32,000 bases of DNA from an uncultured Bacilli bacterium (lineage in GTDB: Bacteria > Bacillota_I > Bacilli_A > RF39 > UBA660): NCBI GenBank assembly GCA_944358535.1, contig CALVRH010000009.1, positions 7,125 to 39,124 of the forward strand. Direction: 5' to 3'. This document shows positions 7,662 through 31,110 of the stretch, one piece after another (the first letter of the stretch is position 1; each line of letters opens with the position of its first letter). A program made the translations under genes and the position numbers. The notes beneath the pieces were generated by a model. The model did not search any database, was not told the DNA's origin, and saw only the letters and a program-made list of their open reading frames with translations.

Positions 7662-8884
7662 AATATTTCTTCAATTCTAAGTAATTCATTATATTTACAT
7701 GTTCTATCAGTTCTAGACAAAGAACCTGTTTTTATTTGTCCTAGATTTAAACCGACAGCAAGGTCAGCGATAGAGGTGTCTTCAGTTTCACCACTACGAT
7801 GAGAGATGATTGTTTTATAGCCATGCTCTTTAGCTAAGTTAATAGTATCTAAGGTTTCACTAATTGTTCCAATTTGATTTATTTTAAGTAAAATGGCATT
7901 ACCAGCATGCATGTCAATACCTTTTTGAAGGTATTTTTTATTAGTAACAAATAGGTCATCACCAACTAATTGGATTTTATCGCCATATCTTTCAGTCATT
8001 TTTTGGAACCCTTCCCAATCGTTTTCGTCAACTGGATCTTCGATAGAAATGATTGGATATTTATCAAGTAAAGTTTGATAGTAATCTATTAATTCATCGG
8101 TAGTTAATTTTAAATTAGCTCCTTTTAAATTGTAAATTCCATCTTCATAAAATTCACTAGCCGCAACATCTATAGCAAAGTTAACATCTTTACCTGGTAT
8201 GTATCCAGCTTCATTAATAGCTTTGATAAGTAAATCTAATGCTTCTTCATTTGTATTTAAGTTAGGGGCGAAGCCACCTTCATCTCCTACTCCAGTATGA
8301 TATCCTGCTTTATTTAAAACACTTTTTAAATGATGGAATACTTCACTTCCAATTTGCAATCTTTTACTGAATGTTTCTGCAGCAGGTACAATCATAAATT
8401 CTTGAAAATCTAGGCCATTATCTGCATGAGCGCCACCATTTAAAATGTTCATCATGGCTCTTGGCATTGAATATTCTTTGCCAACATATTTAAATAATGG
8501 TTCATTACTATCTAAAGCGGCAGCTTTTAGGTTGGCGAGTGAAATACCTAATATTGCATTTGCTCCATATTTTTCTTTATTTTCAGTACCATCTAAAGCT
8601 AACAAAGTTTCATCTATTTTTCTTTGATCATGTGGATCCATACCGATTAATGATTTTTTAAGAATATTGTTGACATTATTTACAGCAGTTAACACGCCTT
8701 TTCCCATATATCTTTTTGAATCATTATCTCTAAGTTCTAATGCTTCTCTTGTTCCAGTAGAGGCTCCTGATGGGACAGCAGCCCTACCTAAAATACCATT
8801 TTCTAATATAACATCTACTTCAACTGTTGGATTTCCTCTAGAATCTAAGATTTCTCTTGCTTTTATATCTTTAATTTTTGACAT
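7643..8884 (-). CDS. eno: Enolase (phosphopyruvate hydratase)
   Basis: 413-aa [22 protein letters not shown] start and [17 protein letters not shown] motif. AGGAGG SD. Confidence 0.95.
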
Positions 8885-9578
8885 TGTTTTTTCCTCCTTT
8901 TAAATTGCCTACAGTTTCTTTTTGGTTCAAAAATGTTTTTAACATGTGATATTTGTTTAGCCAATAGCGATAGTCATTTAAATCTTCTAAAAAGTCCTCG
9001 GAATGATTTTTTTCAAAATCATCTATATATTTTAAAATTTGCTCTTTAAAATTTACCCAATAATTATAACTATATTCAATGGTATAGTTAACATGAGGAC
9101 CTCTTAGTTTGGGGTCGCCTTTCGGTGGTCTAAAGAAAATATCTTCATTGGTGATTATTTCTGCAGTAATATAATTTATTGGAATTGCTTTTCCAGTTAT
9201 TCCGCTGACAAACATGTTTTCAGATGAATTTTGTTTTAAATCAAAGTTATAAAAATTTAAAACATCTTTACAAGTTATTCTTTCAGCTTTAAGTATTTCA
9301 TTTTTTCCTTGATTATTTAAAGATTGCCTTTGCTGAACAAAATCTAATATTTTATTCATTACATTATTATTTATTAGACTTTTATAATAGTCATATATAA
9401 ATATTTCAGAAAAATTATTATAGAATTCTCTTTCATATTCTTTAATAAAAGATGTTAAAAGTTGTTTATAGTCTTCATTAGATAATTTTTCATAGATATT
9501 AAGTTCTTGGTTTAATTTGTTTTTAAAATCTTCAAATAGCATCTCAAATGCCGATAAATCATTTTTGTTTTCCTGCAT
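8871..9578 (-). CDS. Hypothetical protein (no family recognised)
   Basis: 235-aa ORF. Its 3' end overlaps the eno start by 14 nt, so it is probably co-transcribed with eno. Its coding status rests on length and position only. Confidence 0.5.
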
Positions 9579-9652
9579 ATTACCACCAGTACAATTATAT
9601 CATTTTTTTTCAAAATTGTAATTAAAAACCAAACAATTTACGCTTTATTTTA

Positions 9653-9681
9653 TTGACTTTATGATTTTGCGTGTTTATAAT
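9653..9681 (+). promoter_or_regulatory. Candidate sigma-A promoter of the 198-aa Cys/His-containing ORF
   Basis: TTGACT (9653-9658), exactly 17 nt, TATAAT (9676-9681), followed by AGGAGG (9688-9693) and ATG 9700. Confidence 0.5.
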
Positions 9682-9699
9682 TGGTTTAGGAGGATTAGT

Positions 9700-10296
9700 A
9701 TGAGTTTATCAGTATTAGATATTAAAAGAGGGGCTGATGAATTAAGAGAACCTTTTGACAAGAGACTTAGTGAACTAAATGTTTTTGAACAAGAACTTTT
9801 AAAAGATGAAAAGGTTCAATTATATCTTTTTTTACATCAAGAAATTGCTAGAACAGAAGAAAAAAGGAATGAGAAGATTGTTGATTATTTAAGTAATGTA
9901 AGAATTCAATGTGAACATCCTTTGTATATCTGTGTTACTTCTGGAAGTTATGACACTTATTCATATAAGTGTATTTGTCTTAACTGTGGCACTTCAAGAC
10001 ATTTTAAGCAATATGAATTAGACAAATTATATGATGAGCACAAAGTAATTGCGAAAAGGTTGGATGAAGATAATAGTTTAGAAAGAGGTCATTATCATCA
10101 TTATTCATGTATATGCACTGTTAATGAGGCAATGAATTATTATAGTGAATGCTATCAACATTTACAAAATGTAACTGAAAAGGTTCATGGTAATGATTTG
10201 GATTCCTCTGTAGAACTTTCTGCCTCTGAGATGACATATAATCATTTTGTTCATCCGGAGAAAAATTTAAAAAAAGTTATTAAAAAGAAATTATAA
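9700..10296 (+). CDS. Hypothetical protein with a Cys/His cluster (possible zinc ribbon)
   Basis: The start is moved to ATG 9700 (MSLSVLDIKRG; AGGAGG SD 6 nt upstream). The track's ATG 9661 lies inside the predicted promoter spacer. Contains CEHPLYIC...YKCICLNCG. Confidence 0.5.
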   Translation: MSLSVLDIKRGADELREPFDKRLSELNVFEQELLKDEKVQLYLFLHQEIARTEEKRNEKIVDYLSNVRIQCEHPLYICVTSGSYDTYSYKCICLNCGTSRHFKQYELDKLYDEHKVIAKRLDEDNSLERGHYHHYSCICTVNEAMNYYSECYQHLQNVTEKVHGNDLDSSVELSASEMTYNHFVHPEKNLKKVIKKKL

Positions 10297-10360
10297 TAGG
10301 TGTAGTAAAAGATATTTATTACGCTTTTTTATTTGTTTTAGGCTAAATTTTAAAAAAAGA

Positions 10361-10389
10361 TTGAATTTTTTGTAAATATATAGTATAAT
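10361..10389 (+). promoter_or_regulatory. Candidate sigma-A promoter of tRNA-Arg(UCU)
   Basis: TTGAAT (10361-10366), 17 nt, TATAAT (10384-10389). The tRNA 5' end lies 18 nt downstream of the -10. Confidence 0.5.
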
Positions 10390-10407
10390 CTATTTGTTGT
10401 ATGAGTT

Positions 10408-10484
<77 letters not shown>

Positions 10485-10527
10485 TTTTTGATATTAAAGT
10501 TTTTGTTTGAAAAACTTTTTAATTGAA

Positions 10528-10565
10528 AATAATGCTGGTAATATTATTACCAGCATTATTTTTTT
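10528..10565. terminator. Strong bidirectional terminator (ends the tRNA transcript and the minus-strand cassette)
   Basis: Perfect 15-bp stem AATAATGCTGGTAAT (10528-10542) / ATTACCAGCATTATT (10546-10560) with a 3-nt loop and T5 (10561-10565). An A-run lies on the other side. A weaker AT-only hairpin sits at ~10495-10518. Confidence 0.75.
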
Positions 10566-11193
10566 AATTTTGGGATTGTTTGATTATCTCTTGAAGTAAT
10601 TCATTTAATTTGCTAGGATTATTTTTATAATTATCCAAAAGATAATCACATACATTAGGATAATTTTGGTATTGTTTAGCTTTTTCTATAGCCTTATTTT
10701 TATCATATATTTTTTCAGTTATTTTGACAATAAATAGTGCTAGCTCTGGTATATAATTATTTTTAAGAATTTTTTGAAATTTTTGAATAGTCAGTTCTGC
10801 TTGTTTAGTGGTGGTGATAGTATTATAGAGAAAATCTAATACACATTTATTTTCTTGAAAATATATTTCATTTTGTCTAGTAAATATCATTTGAATTAAA
10901 ATCAAAAATTGTTTAAAGTAACTTTCTTCTTTTAAGAAGAAATTAAATTTATTTAAGATATATTTTATTAGTATCAATTTATCGGTATCTGTTATCCACA
11001 TTTTAAAATGATAGATTTCAAAAAGTATTAATTCTAATAATTGGTAATTATTTTCGGCTTTGTGATACAAATGTTGAGCAACAAATTCATCAATAAATTC
11101 TTGATAGTTATTTATATTTTGACTATCTTTTTTATTTTTAAATTTTTTGTCTAATTCATAGTTAAATAATATATCTAATTTTTTCAAATTCAT
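10564..11193 (-). CDS. Hypothetical all-helical protein, last gene of the RyR/TIR-STAND cassette
   Basis: 209 aa from ATG 11193 (GGAG SD 6 nt upstream). The track's start is 11205. No recognisable motifs. It lies 83 nt downstream of the TIR-STAND gene on the same strand, with the terminator directly after its stop. Confidence 0.5.
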   Translation of the reverse strand: MNLKKLDILFNYELDKKFKNKKDSQNINNYQEFIDEFVAQHLYHKAENNYQLLELILFEIYHFKMWITDTDKLILIKYILNKFNFFLKEESYFKQFLILIQMIFTRQNEIYFQENKCVLDFLYNTITTTKQAELTIQKFQKILKNNYIPELALFIVKITEKIYDKNKAIEKAKQYQNYPNVCDYLLDNYKNNPSKLNELLQEIIKQSQN

Positions 11194-11276
11194 AATTATC
11201 TCCATTTAAAATTTTATTACATATTTAGCAACAAGGTTCATCAGTTTTATATGTATCATTTATAATACCATCTTTG

Positions 11277-13682
11277 TCATTTTTTTTCGTTTTTGCCACC
11301 ATTACAGCTTGTTTCTTTCAAACATTTTTCTAAGTTATTTTGGGTTCTTTTATACCAAAAATCGTTAACATCAACTTTATCTTTAAAAATATTAATCATC
11401 TTTTCTAATGGTGCGATAGCTTTCGAATATTGCTGGTTATCCATATATAGATTGGCTAAAGCCTCATAGGATGACAATAAAGAAAAATCGGTTTTGTTAA
11501 AAAAGCTTTCTTTATATTCTATGACTTCGTTTATTTCTTTTAAGGATTTATCAAAATTTCCAATTTTACCATCAGCGACGCCTAAAGCTAGTAAAGCGGT
11601 TTGCGTTTCATCGCTATCTTTGGTGTTTCTTAAGACAAAAATGTCATATGATTTTTGGGCGTATTCTAAGGCTTTTTGGTAGTCTTTTAACTGAGCATAG
11701 GCTCTTGACATAGCCAAATAAGTAGAACCTATTTTACGGTGATTTGATTCTAAAGTAGAGCTAAAAATATTATAGGATTCTTCTAATAAAGGAATAGCGT
11801 TTTGAGCTTTTCCAATTTTAATATAAGAAAAGGCCCTAGATTTTAAGCAATCTGCAAGCAAGTAGTTTTGATCAGTATTAGTTTTTCTTAAAATTTCAAT
11901 GGCTTTTTCATTCCACTCGTTAGCTTTATCTATTTGATAAGATTTATTATAAATAAAACGGATTAAATCACAGGTTTTAGCTACTTCGTGAGAGAATTTA
12001 CCATATATTTCTTTTTGTTTTTCTAGAATATCAAAGGTGATTTTTAGTGCTAAATCATAATATTCTAAATCTCTGAAAAACTTTGCAATGTTTATATAAT
12101 TTGGAATATTATCTTTGGTTACATTTGGAAATTTGGTATACATATTATGAATGACACTACCATATATTTTTCTTTGTTCCGATTTTATTTGCCATGAATC
12201 TTTTTTAGTTAACTCTTTAAATAGTATTTTACAGTTATCTAAATTTGGATGGCACTGTTCTATGATGAGTTCGGAGATTAATGGATGTAGAGCGATGGTA
12301 TCTCTTACCCAATCGTGAATAATCCAACTCTTTTTTATTAATTTGTTAATTTCTTTACCAGTTTCAATATGGCATAAATCCATAAACTCTTCAAAGTCAA
12401 AGCCAGAGATTGGAAAGAAAGTTAAATTCATTAAAATATATTTTTGGGTTTCAGAAAGAGCAGAAATATCATACAGCATGTACAGACAATTTTTGACTGA
12501 GGTTGTTTTTTGATGATATTCGACTATTTCATTTTGGCTGGCGATTCCATTTTGAGTAAGTTCTTTTAACATTTCTTTTGGTTTTTGACGAGTCTCTTTC
12601 ATAACTTTAGCTAAAAGTTCGATGATTAATGTATGGCCTTGAACTAATTTGAATATTTTTAAAAGCGCAGGAATGTTTTCATCTTTGACTTTTCGGCCAT
12701 AGTTTTGTTCGAATAATTTTAATTGTTCATCTTGGTCTTGAAAAGCATCTATTTTTATATTTTGGATACCTAATTCTTTGAAGTCATTTCTAGTAGTGAA
12801 AATCATGTGGTAGTTACCGTTTAATAAATTTAATAATTCTTCATCTTGGTCAGTGTCAAAATTATCGACAATTATTAACATTTTAGTGGAAGCTAATTCT
12901 TTTAATTTTTTTAATTTTCTTTCAAAGTATTCTTTATCGGTTTCTAACTGGCCATTTTCTTTTTGTTTTCGAGTAATATTTTCAATTTCTAGATTTGGAG
13001 AATTTAAAATAGTATTTATGATTGAGGTATCAAAGCTTAAAAAAATAATAGTATCATATTCTTCTCTATAAATGTTGGCATATTTTTTTACTATTTCACT
13101 TTTACCAATTCCTCCCATACCAGTTATAAAAACTTTCTGTTCTGTGGTTAGAATTTCATGAATTTTTTCTAGTTCTACTTTACGACCAATAAAATTATGA
13201 TTATTTAAAATAGTACTGTTTTTTAATTCTTCTTGGGTTAGTTTTATTTGATTATTTTGAACAGGCATTTTTAATAAGAAACAAATCCTATCGCGCAACT
13301 CTTCTATTCTTTTTTCCATTGGTGGATCAATAGCATCAATCCAGTGTAATCTTCTTAAGTAGTAACTAGCATCTGGACTAATTTCTTGATTTGATATATG
13401 AAATGGTAAAATATAAAATTCTTCTTTAGCTCTCACTCTTTCAAAGGCCTCGTTAATTTCATTTAAGACGTCTTGGGAGTTAGAGGCTTCTTGGTTTAAT
13501 ATAAGTAAGAATATTTTACAGTTTCTAATAGCTCTGACAATATCGCCAGCATATTGACTTTCAACATTTCTTGGTGCATACCAACATTTGATTTTTGAGG
13601 ATTCTAAGACATTACATATAGCTTCGACTATGGAGCGAGAAGATTTTGTATGGTAACTAATAAAAACATCTATATCTAGCAT
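11277..13682 (-). CDS. TIR - NB-ARC-like P-loop NTPase - TPR protein (STAND/NLR-like, probable antiphage)
   Basis: 801 aa. N-terminal TIR look (DVFISYHTKSS..., KIFLLILNQEASNSQDVLNEINEAF with a candidate catalytic Glu in VLNEI). Walker A ITGMGGIGKSE and Walker B MLIIVDNFD. NB-ARC GLPLAL-like VQGHTLIIELLAK. The C-terminal ~250 aa are TPR-like repeats (Y..A...YEKA periodicity). AAGGAG SD. Confidence 0.85.
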   Translation of the reverse strand: MLDIDVFISYHTKSSRSIVEAICNVLESSKIKCWYAPRNVESQYAGDIVRAIRNCKIFLLILNQEASNSQDVLNEINEAFERVRAKEEFYILPFHISNQEISPDASYYLRRLHWIDAIDPPMEKRIEELRDRICFLLKMPVQNNQIKLTQEELKNSTILNNHNFIGRKVELEKIHEILTTEQKVFITGMGGIGKSEIVKKYANIYREEYDTIIFLSFDTSIINTILNSPNLEIENITRKQKENGQLETDKEYFERKLKKLKELASTKMLIIVDNFDTDQDEELLNLLNGNYHMIFTTRNDFKELGIQNIKIDAFQDQDEQLKLFEQNYGRKVKDENIPALLKIFKLVQGHTLIIELLAKVMKETRQKPKEMLKELTQNGIASQNEIVEYHQKTTSVKNCLYMLYDISALSETQKYILMNLTFFPISGFDFEEFMDLCHIETGKEINKLIKKSWIIHDWVRDTIALHPLISELIIEQCHPNLDNCKILFKELTKKDSWQIKSEQRKIYGSVIHNMYTKFPNVTKDNIPNYINIAKFFRDLEYYDLALKITFDILEKQKEIYGKFSHEVAKTCDLIRFIYNKSYQIDKANEWNEKAIEILRKTNTDQNYLLADCLKSRAFSYIKIGKAQNAIPLLEESYNIFSSTLESNHRKIGSTYLAMSRAYAQLKDYQKALEYAQKSYDIFVLRNTKDSDETQTALLALGVADGKIGNFDKSLKEINEVIEYKESFFNKTDFSLLSSYEALANLYMDNQQYSKAIAPLEKMINIFKDKVDVNDFWYKRTQNNLEKCLKETSCNGGKNEKK

Positions 13683-13876
13683 TTTATATACTCCTTTCTA
13701 TTACCGGTTATTTTTTCAATGACAGTATAAAAGTGAAATTTTCTTTTTCTCTCTTTTATATGGTAAAGTTGATTATCTATTTTATATTTTTATTGAGTTT
13801 TGAGCCCTCTTTAAATTGTAAGTTTTTATTTTTAGAATTTTCAATCTGTTTATCAATTATTTTATACCTTATTTTT

Positions 13877-15967
13877 TTATTTCTTTTCTATTTTATAACC
13901 CAATTTATCTAAGACTTTTAAAGATTCAATTAGTGTATTTCGATCATAATCTTTTTCTTGTTCAGATAGCATTTCATATGGAACTAATGATGAGTGTGTT
14001 TTTAAATTATCATTGGTTTTGGGGCCGTATGTCCAGCCTTCATTGAATTTATTTTTCGCCCATACTTCGTGAACGTTTTTGGCAAGTTTTTCAGAAATGT
14101 CCATTACTTCTTTACTTAATGTAACTTGACTAGTATCAATAGGATTTGGTGTGTATACTTTAGTTTTTGCACTATTGGTAATTTTTGTACCTAATACGAT
14201 ATCTGGTATTTTTTGGATGATAAATTTATCTTTATTTTGTAGAGGGATTCCTATAGCTTGTTCAACTTGTGGTAGTTTATCATAGTCGGTTAAGGCTGGA
14301 TGAAGCTTTGCTAAAGAATTTATATGACTATTTATGACTTTTTTATAGTTATTAACTTCATCTGGGGTAGCCACTTTATAACCGTCACTTCGCATATAGG
14401 CCATCCATCTGGCGTGTTCATTTTTGATTAAAATATCTAAAGTATTAGGATTTTTTAAACATTGTTTAAAATTTGTCATATCTTGATTTATATCACCGGT
14501 AAATTTATCTTTTAAAATGGAATAAATTTTATATTTGATATGAATAGCGAAAGCCCTTGAAGATTTGATATTATAGTCTTTTTCATAGAAGTCATCAAGG
14601 TTTTGGCTATTAGGATTATAAGCAAAGTGAACTCGTTTTGTCATTTCTTCTATTTGTGAATTGATAATTGGAGATGAATAATACATCTGTCTAATACTAC
14701 CAAAAGCATTTAAATTATATTTATTACCCTTTTGATTTTTTAGATTATTTATTTGTTTATTTTTTAAAGGATTTTCTATCCATATATTAATAATAGGTTG
14801 TTGGTTAAAACCATTTTTATTTAGAAAATATCTACGCAATATTAAGGCTGATTTAAGACTATCTTCTTCACTGTTTAAAGCGATAACAATATAATTTATA
14901 TTAGAAATTTTATCTAACATTTTTTCCATTTTGTTAGATGTGACGTCTACTTCTATAAAATTATAGTTATAATTTGGTAATAACTCTGGATAGTTTAAAG
15001 CAATTTGCTCTTTAATTTTGTGAGCGTTTTTATCAATGACTGTAATCTCAAGACTATATCCAGGTATTTGACCGCACCAAGTAATTGTTTGCAGAAATTC
15101 TAAGCCAACTTTGCCACAGCCAATAATTAAGACTGATATTTGTTTATTTTTAGCGTTTAAGTATAATGGTTTTTCTTCTAAGACTTTACATACTGCACGT
15201 TCAGTTTCATTGACGATGTCTAATCTTATTTTTCCTTTATTAGCGGAATCTAGAATAGTGCTGGCCATAGAGTTATTGGTGATAAAATAAATTTTTATAT
15301 GATTTTGACTATATTTGTCGATTAGGTGAAGGACTTGATTCATCCCTTCATCTTCGTTATTAGATAAGATATAATAAGTTATATTCTTAGAGTTTATATA
15401 TTTTATGTCGATATTATCTACGTTTTCTTCTAGTTTTAAGGCTTTTAGCTTTTTTAATCTTGAATCAAATTCATTATTACTAAGGTAATTTGCGAATATA
15501 AAGATGTTATCTTTATTGTTTATTTTTTCGGCAATGGTGATAGATTTTTCATTTAATTCTGAGAAAATAATGACTTCTTTTTTTATAATGAATCTAAGTT
15601 TTAGTTTTGTAGTGATACCATTTAACAAGGAAGCTAAAAATGATACTGTTAAAAATGGCATGATTAAAAGCAAAAAGTATATTAGCCAAATGTATAATTG
15701 ATCTAATATAGATTCTGTATGAAGACTACTTACTAATAAAATATCTTCACCTAGAATAATTGTTTGTGCAGAGTAGATGATTGCATAAACTATTTTGGAT
15801 ATAAAATCACGTCCAGGGCTAATTGGATATATCAATATTGTAAGGGCAAAAGCCATACCAATTAAAATTGTTGGAATAATTTTTTTCAGATTATAAGTGT
15901 ATTTTCTTTGTTTTATTAAAGTAAATATTAATACCAATATAGCAAGTAAGAAATAAAACATATTCAT
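13877..15967 (-). CDS. Multi-pass membrane protein with Rossmann (TrkA-N/KTN-like) modules and a C-terminal RyR domain
   Basis: About four N-terminal hydrophobic helices and a GxGxxG Rossmann motif (VLIIGCGKVGLEF). The C-terminus LAKNVHEVWAKNKFNEGWTYGPKTNDNLKTHSSLVPYEMLSEQEKDYDRNTLIESLKVLDKLGYKI closely matches the bacterial RyR (ryanodine-receptor repeat) domain consensus. A degenerate RyR-like segment (EHARWMAYMRSDGYK...KLHPALTDYDKLP) precedes it. The start is set at ATG 15967, because the track's GTG 15976 is part of the GAGGTG SD. Confidence 0.75.
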   Translation of the reverse strand: MNMFYFLLAILVLIFTLIKQRKYTYNLKKIIPTILIGMAFALTILIYPISPGRDFISKIVYAIIYSAQTIILGEDILLVSSLHTESILDQLYIWLIYFLLLIMPFLTVSFLASLLNGITTKLKLRFIIKKEVIIFSELNEKSITIAEKINNKDNIFIFANYLSNNEFDSRLKKLKALKLEENVDNIDIKYINSKNITYYILSNNEDEGMNQVLHLIDKYSQNHIKIYFITNNSMASTILDSANKGKIRLDIVNETERAVCKVLEEKPLYLNAKNKQISVLIIGCGKVGLEFLQTITWCGQIPGYSLEITVIDKNAHKIKEQIALNYPELLPNYNYNFIEVDVTSNKMEKMLDKISNINYIVIALNSEEDSLKSALILRRYFLNKNGFNQQPIINIWIENPLKNKQINNLKNQKGNKYNLNAFGSIRQMYYSSPIINSQIEEMTKRVHFAYNPNSQNLDDFYEKDYNIKSSRAFAIHIKYKIYSILKDKFTGDINQDMTNFKQCLKNPNTLDILIKNEHARWMAYMRSDGYKVATPDEVNNYKKVINSHINSLAKLHPALTDYDKLPQVEQAIGIPLQNKDKFIIQKIPDIVLGTKITNSAKTKVYTPNPIDTSQVTLSKEVMDISEKLAKNVHEVWAKNKFNEGWTYGPKTNDNLKTHSSLVPYEMLSEQEKDYDRNTLIESLKVLDKLGYKIEKK

Positions 15968-16118
15968 TTTTTTCACCTCATATCAATTTTTATTACGTTT
16001 CAATTATAACAAAAAGATGGGAAAAATACTACTAACATATTTTTATAGTAAATTTAATAATTTTTCAGATAAATTTCACAAAAGTTGGTTACTATATTTA
16101 TATAAGAAGGAGATGTAT

Positions 16119-17720
16119 ATGGAAAAAATAAAGAAACATAAGAAAAAGATATTAGTGATTTTTTTAATTTTAATAGTGCTAACATGTGCTGGATTTGGTG
16201 GTTATAAATATTATGAACATTATCAAGATACAAGGTTTGAAAATTCTAATTGGTTAAATAGGCATATTTCACTTACACAAAATGATGAAGGCATTTATGA
16301 AGTTGAAACTGATGAGGATATAGATATCTTTAATTTGATTTACCAAGATGTTATCGAAAGTAAAATTAATGATTTAAAAAATGATGATTATTCAATTGAA
16401 AATCCTTTAATTATTTACAACCCATATGGTACTGGAAGTCTTTCATATTATGTTTATTTGGGTGAGAGTTATGATAATTTAAGTTATAAAGTAAGTACTG
16501 ATGGCTATGCGGATTATAGTCACGATTTGGGAGATAATACTGAATATCAACTAGTTGGATTTATTCCAGGTGAGACAAATACTTTTAGTATAACGGATGG
16601 AAATACAACTTTTGAGACCGAAATTACTACTCCAAAAATTGAAGAAGATATTGATATTCAAGTTAAAAAAACAGATGGTGATAGTGATAAAGAATTAACT
16701 GATGGATTATATACAGTACTTGGACATGATAAGAATTATGAGGCAAATATTTATTTATATGATAATGAGGGGATTTTAAGAAATGAACTTGTTTTAAATG
16801 ATTACCGTGCTGATAGGATTATATTTGATGATGGATATATGTATTATCCTTATGAAAGTCGCGAGATAATGAAGGTTGATTCTTTAGGTAAGATTGTAGA
16901 TATGTATGACCTTGGGAAATATAGAATGCATCATGATATGATTTTGGATGGAAATAAATTAGTTATTTTAGTTGATGAAGTTGGAGCTGATACTAAAGAA
17001 GATGTAATTATTACTTTGGATTTAGAGTCTGGTGAGGTTAAAGAAGTAGTAGATATGAAAGATTTACTTCCTGAGCTTTATGAAAAAGCTATTTTACCAG
17101 AAGATAATGAGACATTAGATTGGATTCATTTGAACTGTTTGACGCTTAAAGGTGATGATTTGATTTTAAGCGCTAGAGAAATTTCAACAATTGTTTATGT
17201 ATCTGATTATGAAACTAACCCTATTATTAAGTATTTGATTACTGATGAAAGTATGCTCGAAGGAACATCTTATGGTGATTTACTTTATGATAAAATTGGT
17301 GATTTTGTAGATACTGCTGGTCAGCATGCGGTTACTTATATTCCTGGAGAATCTGATAGTGAATATTATTTGATTATGTTTAATAATAACTATGGTTCAA
17401 TCGTGACAAGACCAGACTTTGAATGGACTAACTATCCAGGTGTTGGAACTTATGAAGAAGGAGATACATCATATTTCTATATGTATAAAATTAATGAGGA
17501 TGATGGAACTTATGAACTTGAAGATAGTTTAGAGATTCCTTATTCGAGTATTGTCAGTAGCGTTCAATTTGTGGATGATAATTTAGTTGTTGGTAGTGGG
17601 ATGGATAACTCATTTGGAGAATATGATGAGGATGGCAATTTAATTAGTCAGTTTAGATACGAAGCTAAAAAATATGCTTATAGAGTGTTTAAATATTCTT
17701 TTGATAATTGGTTTAATTAG
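16119..17720 (+). CDS. Arylsulfotransferase (ASST)-like beta-propeller protein with an N-terminal signal anchor
   Basis: The start is set at ATG 16119 (MEKIKKHKKK; AAGGAG SD). It has a hydrophobic N-terminal helix. The segment ETLDWIHLNCLTLKGDDLILSAREISTIVYVS resembles the ASST family signature. Assignment is by eye only. Confidence 0.55.
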   Translation: MEKIKKHKKKILVIFLILIVLTCAGFGGYKYYEHYQDTRFENSNWLNRHISLTQNDEGIYEVETDEDIDIFNLIYQDVIESKINDLKNDDYSIENPLIIYNPYGTGSLSYYVYLGESYDNLSYKVSTDGYADYSHDLGDNTEYQLVGFIPGETNTFSITDGNTTFETEITTPKIEEDIDIQVKKTDGDSDKELTDGLYTVLGHDKNYEANIYLYDNEGILRNELVLNDYRADRIIFDDGYMYYPYESREIMKVDSLGKIVDMYDLGKYRMHHDMILDGNKLVILVDEVGADTKEDVIITLDLESGEVKEVVDMKDLLPELYEKAILPEDNETLDWIHLNCLTLKGDDLILSAREISTIVYVSDYETNPIIKYLITDESMLEGTSYGDLLYDKIGDFVDTAGQHAVTYIPGESDSEYYLIMFNNNYGSIVTRPDFEWTNYPGVGTYEEGDTSYFYMYKINEDDGTYELEDSLEIPYSSIVSSVQFVDDNLVVGSGMDNSFGEYDEDGNLISQFRYEAKKYAYRVFKYSFDNWFN

Positions 17721-19868: not shown

Positions 19869-22800
19869 TTACTTTTTATGTATGAAAAGTTGCATTTTAT
19901 TTCTTAATGATAATAAGTTATCTATAATTTTTGTTTGTTCCATTTCTTTGATGATAGATTTTTTTCGAAGATAATAATTTACTTCATAGTTTTCATCATA
20001 GTCTTGATTTAACCATCGAAGATTTGGAATAAAAGAAAACATGTTTACCTTAAAGCATAACTTTACTAAGTCAAACATTAATGGGTCTTTGTATATAGCT
20101 GATTGAATATCTTCAAACATGTTATAACTAATATTAAAGTTAAAATATTTTATCATTTGAATAGCTGTTTTTATATCTGTTTCTTTTTGGGTTGCTTGTA
20201 AATAGTTTTGAATACACGGGATGACTATGGCTTTTTCCCAAAGGGATGGCAAAACTATTTTTATCATCCTATATATATTTAATTCATCATCAGTGTTTTC
20301 ATTTAAAATATTATAGTATTCTTCTATATATATTTTTAGATTTCCTATATAGTAAGTTTTTTTATTTTTACTTACATAATAAAGATAAAGATATGTTTGT
20401 AATAAAGGATGACAGAAGTAATACCATTTACCAGCTTTAACGATTATTTTACTATCTAAAGGATTAATTTTATGTTTAGCTAATTTTTCTTCTGTAAAAA
20501 CAATCTCATTATTTTTGATTAATTTATAGGCAAAATAAGATAGTTTATTTATTTCTTTTAAATTACCTTCAAATATAAAGCTTAAAAAGCCAAAGAAGAA
20601 CATTTGATTATTTATATAAGTATTTGTTTCGAAAAATTGATTTAATAAGTTCATGACAATGGTATTATGTTTTAAATCCTCAAATAATGGGCCTTGAAGG
20701 TTATTTATTTTATCTATTATTTCTTTATTAAAGTGATGTTTATGCATATAATCTTGGATATTTATAATATAATGTGATTTACCTAATAGTCTTTCGATTT
20801 TTGTATCTATTAATTTTTTTGTTTCATTTTGATTTGATTTTGAAGGGGTAATTTTAGGTGATGCATAATTTATTTCTGGATAACTAATTTCATTATTTTT
20901 TGTTTCGTTGTTGTAAATTTCTTCTAGACTTTTAGTTAGTTTAGAAGGCATTTTGATGTTTATGTTTTTATATAATCTTGGGACCCATTCATAAATTAGA
21001 TTTTCAAGTTCTAATTCATCCATATCGTAATAATTTATGTCCGAATATATACAATCTTCGATGGCTTTTTTTATGTCACAGCGATTAGTTTTCATATATT
21101 GTTTAAATACTTTTGGATATAGTTCATTTATGTCAGATAATTTATCTATTTGATAAAAGGTTTCTGATTCATATACAAGGTTATCTAAAACATGGTTTAT
21201 AAATTCTGAAAAATCGTGTTTATTTTTGAAGGCATTTAACAAATTAAAGATGTCATCTAAATCAAATTTATATAGTAAGCCAAACATAATATCGTCAAAG
21301 TTAGATAAAAAATCTTCTGTTTCAGAGATTAAGTATTTTTTTATTTTAGAATTTTTTTCAAAGTTGGTGGTCTTGACTAAAGTGGTTAGTATACTTATAT
21401 ATTTGGTATTTTTTTCACAATTTATTAAATGATTTAAAATATGCTCTTCTAGGTTCTTTTTCATTTTTTCATCTTCATAATTTACATATTTCCATAAGGT
21501 AATGGCTTTTTGAGGTGTTAGATCATTAGTTAAATAGTTAAAGTAAAAATTAATATTTTCTTTAAGAAAATGATTTAAGAAATCCTTATAGGTAGGATTT
21601 TTTAAACTTATAGTAGGCTCTTTGGTTTTAGTTATATTTGTGAAGGTGTTTTCGGTTATAGTTATATAATCTGAAAATTTATCGCCGGTATTTTTAAAGA
21701 TATTATTAAAATCTATTTTTAGTTTTTCAATTGAGATTTGTCCTTCATTTAAAAATATTAACAAGAGTAATACTTTGATTTCTACTGGCTGCTTTTTTAG
21801 ATCTTTTTTAAAGTGTTCATAAGGGTGTTTTAGGTAGTCCATGAATTCAATATAAAGATCAAATGGCTTTAGGTGTTTGTATTTATTATAATCTTTAAAG
21901 AAATCATGTATTAATCTTGGAGTATAGTTTGGAGAGTTTAAAATATTACTATAAAACATTAAAAGTATTTTTGTGTGTTCATATGATAAAGGATAATTTA
22001 CTATATGGTTATATAAAATATTAAATTTGGTTATTAATGATAAGTCATTTGCTTTTAATAAAAACTGGTGTTTAGTGAATTCATTACTTATTTTGTTATT
22101 TATTTCTAAGCCTTCTTGAAATATATATTCGCGGCTAGTTATTATTAAATATTTATTTTCTTGCTCTATTAATGATATAAAATTATATAATTTCTTTTGC
22201 ATTTCAGATGATATACTTAAATTATATTCTGTGTCACCCCAAAAATCGTCAAAAAAGTATATTTGATTTTTATTTTTTTGATATACATCATATAATTCAT
22301 CTACTGAAGAGACTTTGATAAATTCAGAATTTTTAATCTTTTTTATTAAATTAATTATTAGCATACGGCCTAGTGTTGTTTTTCCAATACCTGGCTCACC
22401 TGTTATGATGATTACTTTTTTATTTAATAGATTTTCTAAGGCTTGTTTATAGCTATCGGTAATGGCATAAATTTCTTTTTCTTTATTTATTTCGTTTAGT
22501 TCAATTTGTGTTTGCAGATGAATACTTTTATTTTTTATGTTTTCTATTGTATTAAAGAGGATGTTACTACTTGGAATATATAACTGATAGTATTTTAATT
22601 CTAATTCATGATATTCTTTTTTTGATAGTAAGCGATTTAACATTTCTTTATCTATAATATCATTCATTTTTAAATGGCCGGAAAACATTTCAATTAATGT
22701 TTCTTTTTGTTCTTTTTTTAGATTTTGAGAAGTAATTAAAATATATCTATCAAACTTTTGGACTCTTGTGACTTCTTTTTTTAAACTATTTTTTAATGTA

Positions 22801-22988
22801 TTAAAGTTTTCTTTTTGATTTTTAACTTGTCCAATTATTGTTCCATCCGCATTATAAAAGTCAATACCTTTATCTTTACCTAGACCATTATTATAAAATT
22901 GCTCTTTTTCTTTAATTGATATAAATTCGGTTGCAAATTCTTGAAATTCCTCGGCTGATAATGAATCATAATAAGAATATTTTGTCAT
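19869..22988 (-). CDS. Mrr-like PD-(D/E)xK nuclease - STAND P-loop NTPase - long helical C-terminal region (Avs-like antiphage architecture)
   Basis: 1039 aa. N-terminal FQEFATEFI...GKDKGIDFYNADGTIIGQVKNQ has the Mrr_cat-type D...QxK motif. Walker A IIITGEPGIGKTT (nt ~22377-22403) and Walker B IYFFDDFWG. About 750 aa of alpha-helical sequence follow with no recognised repeats. GAAGGTGA SD. Confidence 0.78.
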   Translation of the reverse strand: MTKYSYYDSLSAEEFQEFATEFISIKEKEQFYNNGLGKDKGIDFYNADGTIIGQVKNQKENFNTLKNSLKKEVTRVQKFDRYILITSQNLKKEQKETLIEMFSGHLKMNDIIDKEMLNRLLSKKEYHELELKYYQLYIPSSNILFNTIENIKNKSIHLQTQIELNEINKEKEIYAITDSYKQALENLLNKKVIIITGEPGIGKTTLGRMLIINLIKKIKNSEFIKVSSVDELYDVYQKNKNQIYFFDDFWGDTEYNLSISSEMQKKLYNFISLIEQENKYLIITSREYIFQEGLEINNKISNEFTKHQFLLKANDLSLITKFNILYNHIVNYPLSYEHTKILLMFYSNILNSPNYTPRLIHDFFKDYNKYKHLKPFDLYIEFMDYLKHPYEHFKKDLKKQPVEIKVLLLLIFLNEGQISIEKLKIDFNNIFKNTGDKFSDYITITENTFTNITKTKEPTISLKNPTYKDFLNHFLKENINFYFNYLTNDLTPQKAITLWKYVNYEDEKMKKNLEEHILNHLINCEKNTKYISILTTLVKTTNFEKNSKIKKYLISETEDFLSNFDDIMFGLLYKFDLDDIFNLLNAFKNKHDFSEFINHVLDNLVYESETFYQIDKLSDINELYPKVFKQYMKTNRCDIKKAIEDCIYSDINYYDMDELELENLIYEWVPRLYKNINIKMPSKLTKSLEEIYNNETKNNEISYPEINYASPKITPSKSNQNETKKLIDTKIERLLGKSHYIINIQDYMHKHHFNKEIIDKINNLQGPLFEDLKHNTIVMNLLNQFFETNTYINNQMFFFGFLSFIFEGNLKEINKLSYFAYKLIKNNEIVFTEEKLAKHKINPLDSKIIVKAGKWYYFCHPLLQTYLYLYYVSKNKKTYYIGNLKIYIEEYYNILNENTDDELNIYRMIKIVLPSLWEKAIVIPCIQNYLQATQKETDIKTAIQMIKYFNFNISYNMFEDIQSAIYKDPLMFDLVKLCFKVNMFSFIPNLRWLNQDYDENYEVNYYLRKKSIIKEMEQTKIIDNLLSLRNKMQLFIHKK

Positions 22989-29599: not shown

Positions 29600-29850
29600 G
29601 ACATTAGCTTACCTCACGGTAAGCTTTTTCTACTTCATAGCAGCCTTAGGCTTCTCCATAGACCAGTATCGGATAGTCGCTACCCTAATTTATATTTGTT
29701 GTTTGTCAAAATTTATGATTAGATAGATTGTTCTAGATATAACATATATTTTTCTAAACCTTTAAACATTATATTAACTGCCGCATTATAATCACGTTCA
29801 TGATGTGTATGACATACTGGACATTCCCATTTTCTTATGCTTAAATCTTT
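29600..29850 (-). ncRNA. Candidate TnpB-associated omega/right-end RNA scaffold (boundaries approximate)
   Basis: Directly 3' of the tnpB stop on the minus strand lies an unusually GC-rich, hairpin-forming stretch (…GGGTAGCGACTATCCGATACTGGTCTATGGAGAAGCCTAAGGCTGCTATGAAG…AGCTTACCGTGAGGTAAGCT). In known TnpB systems the guide RNA overlaps the tnpB 3' end and the IS right end. Confidence 0.35.
29605..29629 (+). terminator. Rho-independent terminator after the DUF1540-like ORF (could also be the IS right-end hairpin)
   Basis: AGCTTACC (29605-29612) / GGTAAGCT (29617-29624) with loop TCAC, followed by TTTT. Confidence 0.55.
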
Positions 29851-30867: not shown

Positions 30868-31110
30868 ACCATCACCTTCTATCATTGCTCTTCACTATAT
30901 CACGAATAGTTATATTTGTAAATAACTTTTTGCAAACTTTTACCTTTTACAAAGCAAATTCCTAGTATATAAAAAAATTGCGATGGTGCATAAACTTATA
31001 CATCGCTTTTTTGTTATGTGTTAAATAAAAGTATTTTGGGTAAAATTTACTAAAAATGTATATAGATTTTCATTTATTTGGTATAATTAAATGTGTTAGG
31101 AGGCGGTTTT

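Follow-up and report, generated by a model that had tools for sequence, protein, structure and literature searches.

A RyR-domain membrane protein and a TIR-STAND protein as a candidate two-gene, Thoeris-like signaling module

A minus-strand gene block with a two-gene core

ORF calling in the window, as we term the whole 32,000-nucleotide stretch of DNA analyzed here, places three genes in the same direction on the minus strand, designated g1, g2, and g3 (Table 1). They are separated by 194 nt (g1-g2) and by 71 or 83 nt (g2-g3), depending on the start taken for g3, and a scan of positions 9500 to 17000 finds no terminator-like site in either gap; the layout given in the preliminary description, with gaps of 194 and ~83 nt and no terminator between the genes, is borne out. 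That description also assigned a strong terminator to the end of g3. The hairpin itself stands, but the assignment to g3 alone does not: the hairpin lies between g3 and the adjoining plus-strand tRNA-Arg(TCT) gene with its long T-run on the plus strand, and it is therefore probably a bidirectional terminator common to both.

The tRNA gene and an arylsulfotransferase gene border the variable block, which is flanked by the housekeeping genes enolase and topA. The same tRNA borders a rearranged form of the block at locus L136, and in close relatives g1 always adjoins the arylsulfotransferase gene. At L136, the TIR-STAND gene has the opposite orientation, so that it and g1 converge; strict co-transcription is thus not conserved, and an operon is not needed. 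Other pairs of g1 and g2 homologs overlap or lie 2 to 42 nt apart, as against 194 nt in the window.

The third gene does not belong to this conserved association. Its product, for which the start at 11193 has a GGAG 8 nt upstream, has no significant match in Pfam, PADLOC, NCBIfam, or PHROGs, and its AF2 model (pLDDT 88), an all-helical repeat of 11 helices, has none in the PDB, in agreement with the earlier view of g3 as a helical protein of no recognizable family. A tblastn search of the 45 genome loci from which the 42 g1-family loci come yields no match to g3, which is also absent from the closest relatives, L048 and L136. Its few homologs (7 among 1.84 billion representatives) are distant and occur in other contexts. 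We conclude that g3 is local cargo of the variable region rather than a conserved member, and that the three-gene system first proposed reduces to a two-gene core.

Table 1. Positions of genes, domains, and other features in the window
Feature	Position	Strand	Details
tRNA-Arg(TCT)	10408..10484	+	One border of the variable block
Hairpin	10525..10563	.	18 pairs, 3-nt loop; sole terminator-like site in 9500-17000
g3	10564..11205	-	213 aa; or 209 aa from 11193
g2, TIR-NB-ARC-TPR STAND	11277..13682	-	801 aa; Pfam
g2 TPR array, aa ~530-790	11313..12095	-	TPR_12 (E = 7e-21), TPR_2, TPR_10
g2 NB-ARC/STAND NTPase, aa 164-390	12513..13193	-	NB-ARC at aa 170-387, E = 1.8e-9
g2 TIR domain, aa 1-140	13263..13682	-	TIR_2 at aa 6-120, E = 5.9e-15
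g2 E75 codon	13458-13460	-	Candidate catalytic Glu
g1-g2 spacer	13683..13876	-	194 nt; a single promoter-like match, TTGAAA-18-TACAAT, at 13844-13815
g1	13877..15976	-	699 aa from GTG 15976; 696 aa from ATG 15967
g1 canonical RyR (Repeat12-type) domain, aa 608-698	13883..14155	-	Pfam PF02026
g1 core RyR-like domain, aa 436-598	14183..14671	-	Present in every family member
g1 second Rossmann (KTN/RCK) domain, aa 279-435	14672..15142	-	Pfam, invariant columns
g1 RCK1-like Rossmann domain, aa 134-268	15173..15577	-	Alignment, AF2 strand/helix alternation, Foldseek tandem-RCK match
g1 membrane region, aa 1-128	15593..15976	-	AF2 secondary structure, conservation in 42 homologs
Arylsulfotransferase gene	16017-17720		Other border of the variable block

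g2 is a TIR-STAND protein with a conserved glutamate

Pfam profiles match all three parts of g2 (TIR_2, NB-ARC, and TPR_12), as the TIR, P-loop NB-ARC-like, and TPR assignment of the preliminary description anticipated. The NTPase domain carries a Walker A motif, GMGGIGKS (residues 188-195), and a Walker B motif, LIIVDNFD (residues 269-276). The TPR array, which finds weak matches to kinesin-light-chain TPRs in the PDB, is presumed to be the sensor surface. Within the TIR domain, E75 is invariant across 10 partner TIRs, and its column in the TIR profile ("vlnE") aligns with the glutamates of SPARTA TIR-APAZ ("VLKEL") and Cat1 ("CWDEL"); we take the Glu of this column to be the catalytic residue.

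Homologs of g2 are numerous (212 at E <= 1e-30). Full-length homologs adjoin g1 homologs at L001, L002, L016, L019, L020, L025, L048, L136, and L138, and at the first two of these loci, identity to the window proteins is 67% for g1 but only 37% for g2, the sensor being the diverging partner. The association is looser from the side of g2. Among six g2-like TIR-STANDs sampled, three have a g1 or RyR neighbor, one has a PNP_UDP_1 gene with no g1 or RyR, and two have neither, so that two or three of the six count against a two-gene module.

g1 joins a membrane region, tandem RCK domains, and two RyR-type domains

The ATG start of g1 at 15967 agrees with the 696-aa database protein P0001. A protein search returns 48 homologs. 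Common to the family are a membrane region at the N terminus, a pair of RCK/KTN Rossmann domains, and a divergent RyR-like domain; the window protein has a canonical RyR domain in addition. The AF2 model (pLDDT 86.6) shows a tandem RCK and tandem RyR fold, with Foldseek matches to GsuK, TrkA, Slo1, CASTOR, a Bacteroides RyR protein, and human RyR3 Repeat12.

Where about four transmembrane helices had been described, the model has three long helices (residues 2-26, 30-52, and 90-128) and a short one (58-74) rather than four plain spans. Conservation among the 42 homologs is marked in a Y-S-x-Q-T-I-x-L-[GN]-[EQ]-D stretch that ends at D78. The membrane region matches no channel family in Pfam, including Ion_trans-type families, and contains no TVGYG-like K+ filter motif. 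Its sole sequence lead is a weak, below-threshold match of residues 9-236 to NCBIfam TIGR03025, the N terminus of polyprenyl glycosylphosphotransferases.

The RCK1-like domain is devoid of a glycine loop and has invariant F138, N142, and A149 in a conserved "IFSELNEKS" segment. The second Rossmann domain has the sequence GCGKVG at residues 286-291, as noted in the preliminary description, and an invariant D315 that closes strand 2, a pattern typical of, and here predicted to form, a dinucleotide or adenine-nucleotide site. Its proposed KTN/TrkA-N character also holds: TrkA_N and Sacchrp_dh_NADP score slightly under their cut-offs on residues 282-382 of g1, and TrkA_N is matched in 13 of 24 family members.

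The RyR-type domains keep the residues that bind cADPR isomers in phage proteins

The C-terminal domain of g1 is the textbook bacterial RyR domain that had been recognized at the outset. It reaches 124 bits with PF02026 (E = 2.7e-36; cut-off 27.4 bits) and scores highly (73 bits) against repeat 1 of RyR2; by Foldseek, it is 49-52% identical to the Bacteroides structures 3NRT and 4N05. The core RyR-like domain is more divergent but is related to RyR with an hhalign probability of 96% (E = 3e-9). Across the family, PF02026 matches 11 of 24 members, and the C-terminal RyR is present in only 5 of those 24.

Both domains contain a His-Trp-His-Asp tetrad. In the core domain, the four residues (H521, W524, H559, and D583) are invariant in 42/42 g1 homologs. 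In the canonical domain (H636, W639, H661, and D678), the spacing of +3, +22, and +17 is identical to that in two phage proteins, RyDEP (H75, W78, H100, D117) and RyR Tad (H129, W132, H154, D171), in which these residues bind 2'cADPR and 3'cADPR (2026 preprints; PMC13232231; doi 10.64898/2026.06.04.730250). Phage PF02026 domains have nanomolar Kd values for 2'cADPR and 3'cADPR, also bind cADPR, and in some cases cleave the signals (PMC13232231; doi 10.64898/2026.06.04.730250). These results overtake the caution in the preliminary description that nucleotide binding by the RyR repeat is not established, and they do so in favor of the link that it had drawn. The H and D of the RyDEP catalytic dyad are kept in both RyR-type domains of g1; since these residues form the glycosidase dyad, the g1 domains could, by sequence, degrade or sequester a signal rather than transduce it. 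In many of the stand-alone RyR genes at g1-family loci, the third ligand residue is Thr instead of His.

g1-family and RyR genes are found beside TIR genes

Conserved co-localization with TIR genes, put forward earlier as a check on the proposed link, is found in two samples. The first comprises 42 g1-family loci (out of 45 genome loci), all from MAGs of gut bacteria and including the near-duplicates L001/L002, L009/L010, and L012/L013. A TIR gene lies at most three genes from the g1 homolog at 23 of the 42 loci, 22 identified by HMM and one (L007) by tblastn. By strict assignment, 23 of the 211 genes that lie within ±3 positions are TIR genes, as against 0 of the 343 more distant ones (Fisher p = 1e-10). 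This enrichment spans 25-40% identity among the g1 homologs, differing flanks, and differing TIR architectures. Eight further loci carry DUF4062 genes in place of TIR, and an hhalign probability of 0.2% gives no sign that the two are related. The other 11 have neither, 4 of them being truncated by contig ends.

The TIR partners range from TIR-NB-ARC-TPR and TIR-NPHP3-type NTPase-TPR proteins to TIR-MORN, TIR-STING, TIR-FtsK, and TIR joined to a domain of no known family; across these partners of g1, TIR rather than STAND is the conserved element. A TIR-type neighbor is near-constant for g1 and optional for g2-like STANDs, which fits g1 as the dependent, downstream component. The neighborhoods of these 42 diverged loci thus support the earlier suggestion that g1 may be coupled to the NAD-derived output of its TIR neighbor. 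One g1 homolog, at L036, is followed by an ADP-ribosylglycohydrolase gene.

RyR has the distribution of a mobile sensor module. The closest relatives carry it as part of g1; 14 loci encode it on its own, in a gene for ~95 aa up- or downstream of the g1 homolog; and at L019 and L033 it forms a fusion with Abi_2. At L139, one protein combines RCK2 and the RyR-like core with kinase and Card1-like nuclease domains, and its gene adjoins two TIR-STAND genes and a separate RyR gene. In an independent metagenome sample of RyR-domain loci, a TIR-like gene lies no more than three genes from RyR in 13 of 38 non-redundant clusters; among clusters with at least 4 visible neighbors, 11/24 are TIR-linked, with a background of 9/250 ORFs. 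Examples include a RyR gene with Macro-TIR and TIR genes and, in a Lentisphaeraceae MAG, an AAA-RyR protein encoded between two TIR genes. A search of 2.9 million viral contigs found no g1 homologs; the g1 family is cellular, not viral.

A proposed signaling mechanism and its alternatives

We favor a reading, to which we give somewhat better than an even chance, in which g1 and g2, exclusive of g3, form a two-gene, Thoeris-like anti-phage signaling module. The TPR/STAND part of g2 would detect infection and oligomerize, whereupon its TIR domain would use NAD+ through E75 and release an ADPR-derived product such as a cADPR isomer. Judging by homology, the RyR-type module of g1, core and canonical domains together, would read this product, and the RCK/KTN Rossmann domains may add sensing of NAD(H) or adenine nucleotides. 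In the most speculative step, the ligand would shift a tandem-RCK "gating ring" and thereby activate the membrane region, with an ion leak or depolarization that could abort infection.

Avs-type TIR-STANDs are usually treated as self-contained NAD+-depleting effectors and were left out of the Thoeris survey for that reason. It is conceivable, though unlikely, that g2 is likewise a self-sufficient NADase that kills by NAD+ depletion and that g1 serves as a brake and not as an effector, its RyR domains sequestering stray cADPR-type products or hydrolyzing them as a RyDEP-like glycosidase and thereby setting a threshold, preventing autoimmunity, or recycling ADPR. The retained H...D dyad would suit such a role, as would the TIR-STAND homologs that lack g1, the tie to ADPR turnover at L036, and the stand-alone 95-aa RyR proteins, which resemble sponges more than effectors. 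However, H and D are retained in phage RyR proteins of the sponge type too, so the dyad is no proof of catalysis. A brake would have no need of a membrane anchor and tandem RCK ring, yet both are invariant in the g1 family, and RyR occurs with typical killing domains, as in the Abi_2 fusions and the Card1-like nuclease context.

The Rossmann domains raise a second alternative, which we consider quite improbable: g1 would be an effector triggered when the TIR NADase lowers NAD+ or alters the NAD+/NADH or ATP/ADP balance, a change read by the KTN/RCK domains, with RyR structural or secondary. GsuK and TrkA, whose ligands are nucleotides, are the nearest folds and represent nucleotide-regulated RCK proteins, and both the GCGKVG/D315 pattern and the breadth of TrkA_N matches in the family are in keeping with such a sensor. 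This account, however, leaves the invariance of the His-Trp-His-Asp tetrad without explanation, and separate RyR genes and RyR fusions also track TIR at loci that have no g1-type Rossmann protein.

It is very doubtful that information flows in reverse, from a g1 that senses phage-induced envelope or ion changes to a TIR protein that is the sole effector. The membrane location of g1, the frequent use of RCK domains as ion sensors, and the g1-first gene order are all compatible with this arrangement, but the TIR partners have large sensor modules of their own (TPR-STAND, MORN, STING, FtsK), TIR-STANDs occur in contexts that lack g1, and RyR domains are documented receivers of TIR products. Hardly credible is chance adjacency of a defense gene to a housekeeping cation-transport regulator, g1, for which the position of the block between enolase and topA and the constant arylsulfotransferase neighbor in close relatives might speak, given the strength of the TIR enrichment despite such divergent g1 sequences, flanks, and TIRs and the RyR-TIR linkage found independently of g1.

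Comparison with known systems

PADLOC models match none of the window genes, and RyR, PF02026, and TrkA are not mentioned in the text or the examined tables of the Thoeris I-XI catalogue; to that extent, the earlier view that this set of genes corresponds to no described system holds. The resemblance to Thoeris lies in a TIR gene with a catalytic Glu beside a gene that joins a small-molecule sensor to a killing or membrane domain, in the free exchange of the TIR partner, and in the occurrence of several TIR genes at a locus. Thoeris types II, VI, VII, and X are known to use membrane effectors (Thoeris survey). Known effector sensors include SLOG and Macro, whereas that of g1 is of the RyR/Repeat12 type, which none of the listed effectors uses. 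The effector body of g1 also differs, as a tandem-RCK membrane protein, and the window TIR belongs to an 801-aa STAND NTPase, a class left out of the survey, rather than to a small ThsB. The type X "ion channel" ThsK was considered as a g1 relative and rejected (~222 aa, unrelated).

RyDEP and RyR Tad share PF02026 and the identically spaced tetrad with g1. They are, however, small soluble viral counter-defense proteins that destroy or soak up Thoeris signals, whereas g1, a membrane protein of 699 aa, is cellular, has its gene next to a TIR gene, and is predicted to receive the signal rather than block it. As in Avs, g2 has an N-terminal TIR, a central STAND NTPase, and C-terminal TPRs, and its homologs can stand alone; it differs in matching no PADLOC Avs model and in having a conserved RyR/RCK partner gene, which lies outside the Avs definition. 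A likeness to CBASS is seen in the TIR-STING genes directly upstream of g1 homologs at L011, L015, L017, and L023, although no CD-NTase occurs among the scanned part of the neighboring genes and the window lacks STING.

RCK/KTN channels (GsuK, MthK, TrkA/TrkH, Slo1, CASTOR) are the best whole-protein structural matches to g1 (E = 1e-6 to 1e-4); like them, g1 has two Rossmann-type RCK domains that immediately follow its final membrane helix, and a nucleotide site with a glycine loop. Unlike these channels, g1 has an unclassified membrane part, devoid of the Pfam channel match and filter discussed above, and a C-terminal RyR module. Compared with animal RyR, g1 is about 7 times smaller and has an unrelated pore part, and direct binding of cADPR to animal RyR is itself regarded as unproven (2026 preprint). 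If our favored reading is correct, g1 and g2 would constitute an undescribed anti-phage signaling system and a bacterial counterpart of the animal cADPR-RyR link: in both, a membrane cation-release protein is the proposed target of an ADPR derivative made by a TIR-family enzyme or cyclase, and in human RyR3 it is the tandem Repeat12 to which the core and canonical RyR-type pair of g1 aligns, along ~200 columns.

Organization of the locus

The locus contains three co-directional minus-strand genes: g1, which encodes an RCK/RyR membrane protein; g2, which encodes a TIR-NB-ARC-TPR STAND protein; and g3, which encodes a helical ORFan. The intergenic gaps are 194 nt (g1-g2) and 71 or 83 nt (g2-g3). 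ORF and terminator scans agree with the preliminary description on orientation, gaps, and the lack of an intervening terminator, as a scan of positions 9500-17000 found no terminator site between the genes and none besides a hairpin beyond g3. Because its T-run lies on the tRNA strand, this hairpin probably acts as a terminator in both directions.

Coordinates of features in the window and in related loci (L-numbers) of other genomes or metagenome contigs
Feature	Sequence	Coordinates	Strand	Remarks
g1	Window	13877-15976	-	699 aa; alternative ATG at 15967 gives the 696-aa database form
g2	Window	11277-13682	-	801 aa
g3	Window	10564-11205	-	Likely start 11193, GGAG ahead of start
tRNA-Arg(TCT)	Window	10408-10484	+	Border of the g1-g2-g3 block
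Arylsulfotransferase gene	Window	16017-17720	+	Opposite border of the block
Terminator-like hairpin	Window	10525-10563		Between g3 and tRNA-Arg
235-aa ORF	Window	8871-9578	-	Between enolase and tRNA; counterpart in L136, 51% identity
211-aa ORF	Window	9661-10296	+	Between enolase and tRNA; Cys/His clusters; absent from L136
Second STAND NTPase gene	Window	19869-22988	-	1039 aa
IS605-family OrfB/TnpB gene	Window	29719-30885	-	
Abi_2-RyR gene	L019	4460-5620		Directly upstream of g1 homolog
Abi_2-RyR gene	L033	5847-7007		Directly upstream of g1 homolog
ADP-ribosylglycohydrolase gene	L036	10165-10956		PF03747, E = 7e-36; directly downstream of g1 homolog
g3 relative	L047	8001-8660		219 aa, 26% identity
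Variable region	L136	5647-8869		TIR-STAND gene inverted relative to the window; HTH gene after it
PNP_UDP_1 gene	L138	3350-4087		
Kinase-nuclease, RyR, and TIR-STAND genes	L139	1-8448		Kinase-nuclease protein of 1416 aa
PNP_UDP_1 gene	L141	5213-5983		Upstream of TIR-STAND

The g1 protein combines RyR-type domains with a predicted tandem RCK fold

Both the RyR and the Rossmann modules originally proposed for g1 are recovered. Pfam recognizes a canonical RyR domain at residues 608-698 (PF02026, E = 2.7e-36, 124.1 bits against a gathering threshold of 27.4), which also has strong PDB matches to RyR1-3. TrkA_N and NAD-binding Pfam matches at residues 282-382 lie near threshold, and the second Rossmann domain has the GCGKVG motif and an invariant Asp ending strand 2. 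The family alignment reveals a further strongly conserved segment ('NEH-RW ... LAKLHPAL', residues ≈510-590). Profile comparison by hhalign (probability 96%, E = 3e-9) identifies it as a diverged RyR domain into which 13 residues are inserted; we refer to residues 436-598 as the core RyR-like domain. PF02026 matches occur in 11 of 24 g1-family members, six of them through this core region, and among the 48 g1 homologs in the database the C-terminal RyR domain is confined to the five closest, the others being ≈600 residues long.

In the AF2 model of g1 (pLDDT 86.6), the membrane region contains three long helices plus a short one, and behind it come two Rossmann-type domains, a helical stretch, and the RyR domain, in that order. 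Foldseek comparison of this model with the PDB returned the tandem-RCK structures of GsuK, the TrkA gating ring, Slo1/BK, and CASTOR; a Bacteroides RyR protein (3NRT/4N05, 49-52% identity, target-normalized TM 0.83-0.89); and Repeat12 of human RyR3, aligned over ≈200 columns. Because of this layout and these matches, g1 is predicted to join its membrane region to a tandem RCK and then a tandem RyR-type module, with the RCK fold following the inner helix, as in the GsuK and MthK channels.

Two types of phage counter-defense protein provide a reference for the RyR-type domains. The PF02026 proteins termed RyDEP cleave 2'/3'cADPR or bind it at nanomolar Kd, and the RyDEP crystal structure identifies H75, W78, H100, and D117, which are conserved in animal Repeat12, as the ligand and catalytic residues (PMC13232231). 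RyR Tad binds 3'cADPR, 2'cADPR, and cADPR via H129/W132, H154, and D171 (doi 10.64898/2026.06.04.730250). In the canonical RyR domain of g1, H636, W639, H661, and D678 have the spacing of the phage ligand residues (+3, +22, +17), and in the core RyR-like domain H521, W524, H559, and D583 are invariant in 42/42 homologs. The ligand-pocket feature of PF02026 (H, W, H, D) is present in both domains. Carrying the published cADPR-binding residues, g1 is, as far as its sequence can indicate, a putative signal-binding neighbor of the TIR gene g2.

The membrane region has no TVGYG-like K+ filter, and none of 24 g1-family members has an Ion_trans_2 or other channel match in Pfam, which speaks against membership of g1 among K+ channels. 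The membrane region instead carries Y-S-x-Q-T-I-x-L-[GN]-[EQ]-D, and helix 58-74 together with the conserved L-[GN]-[EQ]-D could form a pore loop. A weak competing lead is a possible likeness of the membrane region to glycosylphosphotransferase N-termini (NCBIfam, 25.7 bits against a cut-off of 295). Overall, g1 can be placed firmly in PF02026 and has an RCK fold, but it is not a demonstrable K+ channel. A phage origin of g1 is rejected, as no relative was found in IMG/VR (2.9 million viral contigs) and PHROGs matches are limited to the RyR domain.

The g2 protein has a conserved TIR glutamate

Pfam matches to TIR_2 (E = 5.9e-15), NB-ARC, and TPR bear out the domain layout first assigned to g2, with GMGGIGKS as Walker A and LIIVDNFD as Walker B; NCBIfam gives the NTPase region of FxSxx_TPR alone, far under the cut-off. 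Since phmmer searches of the PDB with the g2 TIR domain or full-length g2 yielded no matches or TPR matches only, a profile was needed, and one built from ten TIR partners of g1 homologs matches Cat1, SPARTA TIR-APAZ, AbTir, PdTIR, Roq1, and SARM1. In the alignment of these partners F7, I8, and S9, which begin the 'FISY' motif, and E75 are invariant, and Y10 is nearly so. E75 (profile column 'vlnE') shares its alignment column with a Glu of SPARTA TIR-APAZ ('VLKEL') and of Cat1 ('CWDEL'). We take the equivalent glutamate of TIR domains to be catalytic, and by this alignment g2 appears to have the Thoeris feature of a TIR protein with a catalytic glutamate.

TIR genes cluster beside g1-family genes

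A scan with the g1 alignment over one genome per species (GTDB) identified 45 loci, all in Bacilli or Clostridia MAGs from gut or rumen; 42 of them hold true g1-family members (25-67% identity). Neighboring ORFs were called simply, as the longest non-overlapping ORFs, and clustered; cluster representatives were annotated with Pfam, and all ORFs were then searched with custom HMMs built from these. The co-localization of g1 and TIR genes central to the preliminary description recurs among the 42 loci: strict TIR genes make up 23/211 ORFs within three positions of g1 and 0/343 farther off (p = 1e-10), in a comparative sample composed exclusively of MAGs and metagenome contigs and including some near-duplicate loci. 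A TIR gene is found in 23 loci and a DUF4062 gene without TIR in 8 more; 11 have neither, with contig ends cutting 4 of these. The DUF4062 loci are counted separately because hhalign comparison of two custom alignments gives no support for kinship of DUF4062 with TIR (probability 0.2%).

Genes found beside g1-family genes
Architecture	Loci	Remarks
TIR-NB-ARC-TPR	L001, L002, L016, L019, L020, L025	
TIR-MORN	L008, L014, L028, L031, L032, L036, L037, L041	L008, L028, and L036 confirmed by Pfam; other five assigned by clustering with these
TIR + unknown C-terminal domain	L034	
TIR-FtsK	L035	
TIR + NPHP3-type NTPase + TPR	L020	
TIR-TPR	L024	
TIR-STING	L011, L015, L017, L023	Directly upstream of g1 homolog, ≈8750-9990 in each
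DUF4062, alone or TPR-fused	L005, L006, L009, L010, L012, L013, L019, L024, L029, L033	L019 and L024 also have TIR genes

As a rule, g1 and its partner genes in these loci either overlap or are separated by 2-42 nt. No CD-NTase was recognized among the scanned neighbors of the TIR-STING genes. Stand-alone RyR genes of ≈95 codons occur in 14 loci; their products retain an invariant H, W, and D, and many have Thr (e.g., L004, L014, L028, L040) at the position of the third ligand His of g1 and phage RyDEP, the phosphate-contact residue. The Thr substitution may indicate another ligand preference in these small proteins. Genes for Abi_2, an AbiD/AbiF-type abortive-infection protein, carry a fused C-terminal RyR domain in three loci (L019, L033, L081), and Abi_2 without RyR is found downstream of g1 in six others (L003, L005, L006, L009, L010, L022). 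In L036, the g1 homolog lies between a TIR-MORN gene and an ADP-ribosylglycohydrolase gene.

The two partners differ in how closely they resemble those of the window. L001 and L002 are syntenic with the window and their g1 is 67% identical, with the adjoining TIR-STAND just 37% identical. The best g2 match, in L019, reaches 45%, and its neighboring g1 homolog is 41% identical to g1. This pattern of identities suggests partner swapping or rapid sensor evolution at the g1/TIR-STAND pair.

RyR and TIR genes are linked independently of g1

A metagenome scan with an RyR-domain alignment returned 80 loci, 68 of them with a called RyR ORF, in 38 clusters at 85% identity. TIR-like genes lie within three genes of RyR in 13 of the 38 clusters and in 11 of the 24 with enough visible context; the background rate of TIR-like genes in this sample is 9/250 ORFs. 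The arrangements include an RyR protein with a C39-like N-terminal region adjoining Macro-TIR and TIR genes, a TM-TrkA_N-RyR protein together with an RyR gene and a TIR gene, and, in a Lentisphaeraceae MAG, TIR and TIR-RHS genes flanking an AAA/tandem-RyR protein. A recurrent human-gut element (L092-L095, L102, L107, L111, L112, L114) comprises genes for a 752-aa g1-family protein, a 190-aa protein, a 367-aa protein ending in an RyR domain, and a 101-aa RyR protein, with the gene for a 1093-aa TPR-CHAT protein on the opposite strand; HMM searches found no TIR gene in this element, and the 190-aa protein has no Pfam match.

The reverse comparison used six g2 homologs on long contigs. Three have a nearby g1-family gene or RyR, one has a PNP_UDP_1 gene (nucleoside phosphorylase family) and no g1 or RyR, and two have neither; the loci without g1 or RyR are L137, L140, and L141. 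PNP_UDP_1 lies upstream of g2-type genes twice, once with g1 (L138, in the order PNP_UDP_1, g1-family gene, TIR-STAND) and once without (L141). Taken together, the forward and reverse tests indicate that the dependence of g1 on TIR neighbors is much greater than the converse.

L136 (75% identity) corresponds to the window in chromosomal position, with the order FtsY, RNase J, enolase, 235-aa ORF, tRNA-Arg, variable block, arylsulfotransferase, and topA. Besides its inverted TIR-STAND gene, it has a 56-aa TIR fragment just downstream of g1, 47% identical to the g2 N-terminus, and it has neither g3 nor a counterpart of the 211-aa ORF. Given this rearrangement, the tRNA-to-arylsulfotransferase interval is, on the sequences compared, a variable region in which the TIR gene appears to turn over and g1 to stay. 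In L139, the 1416-aa protein combines protein-kinase and Card1-like nuclease domains (Pfam) with matches to the g1 RCK2 and RyR-like core (custom g1 HMM); downstream of its gene come one for a 97-aa RyR protein and two for TIR-STAND proteins. The presence of RCK2 and the RyR-like core within a nuclease protein suggests that the g1 cytosolic module can drive a non-membrane effector.

Comparison with described defense systems

The preliminary description knew of no defense system with the g1-g2 combination, and this view stands. PADLOC returned 0 families at E <= 0.1 and has no model for g1, g2, or g3. A survey of Thoeris that describes types I-XI and catalogs 29 putative effectors leaves out Avs-type TIRs (doi 10.64898/2025.12.03.692087); RyR, PF02026, and TrkA are not mentioned in its text or in the tables covered, which include part of Table S1. 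Kaur et al. 2020 (PMC7159879) makes no mention of RyR, ryanodine, DUF4062, MORN, or TrkA, and in Kaur et al. 2021 (PMC8195603) ryanodine occurs in the reference list only. Literature searches on RyR domains in bacterial conflict yielded no earlier account of a g1/g2 system.

Within the available portion of the Thoeris catalog, g1 belongs to none of the described effector families (ThsA, ThsC-ThsL), as judged by sequence for type X and by catalog for the others. The type X 'ion channel' effector was rejected, as ThsK is unrelated to the g1 family (hhalign probability 0.05%); type X loci were found via the type X TIR of Table S1, with a ≈222-aa protein as neighbor, and a plasmid-based search had yielded type II (Macro) Thoeris only. 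The g1/g2 pair would function similarly to Thoeris, but with an effector outside the families in the available catalog, and its TIR protein is a STAND, whereas Thoeris has ThsB. Like Avs, g2 has an N-terminal effector domain, a STAND NTPase with Walker A and B motifs, and a C-terminal repeat sensor, but it matches no curated Avs/AVAST model (PADLOC).

Proposed function of g1 and g2

We file g1/g2 as a putative TIR-based signaling defense in a previously undescribed form. Given the domains, ligand residues, fold, and linkage described here, we lean toward a module in which a TIR-made signal is received by an RyR sensor that controls a membrane effector. In such a module, g2 would make a signal, going beyond mere NAD+ depletion, and g1 would bind it; the output would be membrane damage or ion flux, and the end result phage defense.

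The main alternative is that g2 is an autonomous NADase and that the RyR domains of g1 serve as a sponge or glycosidase brake. Such a brake is conceivable, since H...D also acts as a catalytic dyad in RyDEP, but it explains neither the invariant membrane/RCK body of g1 nor why RyR is fused to Abi_2 and to nuclease domains. Alternatively, the RCK Rossmann site of g1 could sense NAD+ loss, and the brake and NAD+-loss sensing could operate jointly. A more specific and rather doubtful proposal is that g1-family proteins are bacterial ligand-gated cation channels, in which a TIR-made cADPR isomer would bind the RyR Repeat12-type module and the RCK ring would open the pore. If so, the animal axis from TIR/cyclase through cADPR to the ryanodine receptor would descend from, or have been assembled from, prokaryotic anti-phage parts, which would make RyR Repeat12 an ancestral receptor domain for cADPR.

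If the TIR-signal, RyR-sensor, membrane-effector module is correct, TIR immune signaling would gain an RyR/Repeat12 sensor domain and a tandem-RCK membrane effector body, and TIR-STAND sensors, hitherto seen as self-contained NAD+ depleters, would be linked to downstream signal-responsive effectors. Phage RyR sponges and glycosidases would be explained as copies of a host receptor domain turned on the host. Whether cADPR acts directly on ryanodine-receptor Repeat12 is a decades-old question, and g1, a small, tractable bacterial protein with a Repeat12-type domain in the membrane beside a putative cADPR-type enzyme, would allow a direct test. Such systems, which current defense-finder models miss, could be sought with the g1 HMM and the H-W-H-D core domain.

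The g3 gene and the chromosomal surroundings

The proposal of a three-gene system with g3 as a modulator is not sustained: g3 homologs are absent from all 45 loci of the GTDB scan and from the closest relatives. As originally noted, g3 has no recognizable family, with no match in four libraries (Pfam, PADLOC, NCBIfam, PHROGs). An exhaustive HMMER search through 1.84 billion representatives turned up just seven relatives, none adjoining TIR or RyR genes. One of these, in L047, adjoins a PRiA4_ORF3 gene and Wadjet JetABCD, and in the database proteins P0054 and P0055 (≈500 aa) the g3-type helical domain lies behind a SWIM-type zinc-finger-like motif (C-x-C...C-x-H) identified by eye. The AF2 model of g3 is a generic helical repeat of 11 helices, and comparison with the PDB gave no significant match.

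The G+C content of the g1-g2-g3 block (22-29%) is near that of its flanks, and the wider flanks are housekeeping genes, among them those for FtsY, RNase J, enolase, and topoisomerase I. An Rfam search of the spacers for structured RNAs and riboswitches found two tRNAs and nothing else, and family searches with the 235-aa and 211-aa ORFs gave no significant match. Just past topA, the second STAND NTPase gene, in a stretch of ≈23% G+C, encodes a protein that matches Pfam nSTAND3 (E = 9e-39), with no Pfam match in its N-terminal ≈170 residues or long C-terminal part; it is probably a further defense-type gene. The window also holds an IS605-family OrfB/TnpB gene, whose product has HTH_OrfB_IS605, OrfB_IS605, and Cas12f1-like TNB domains.
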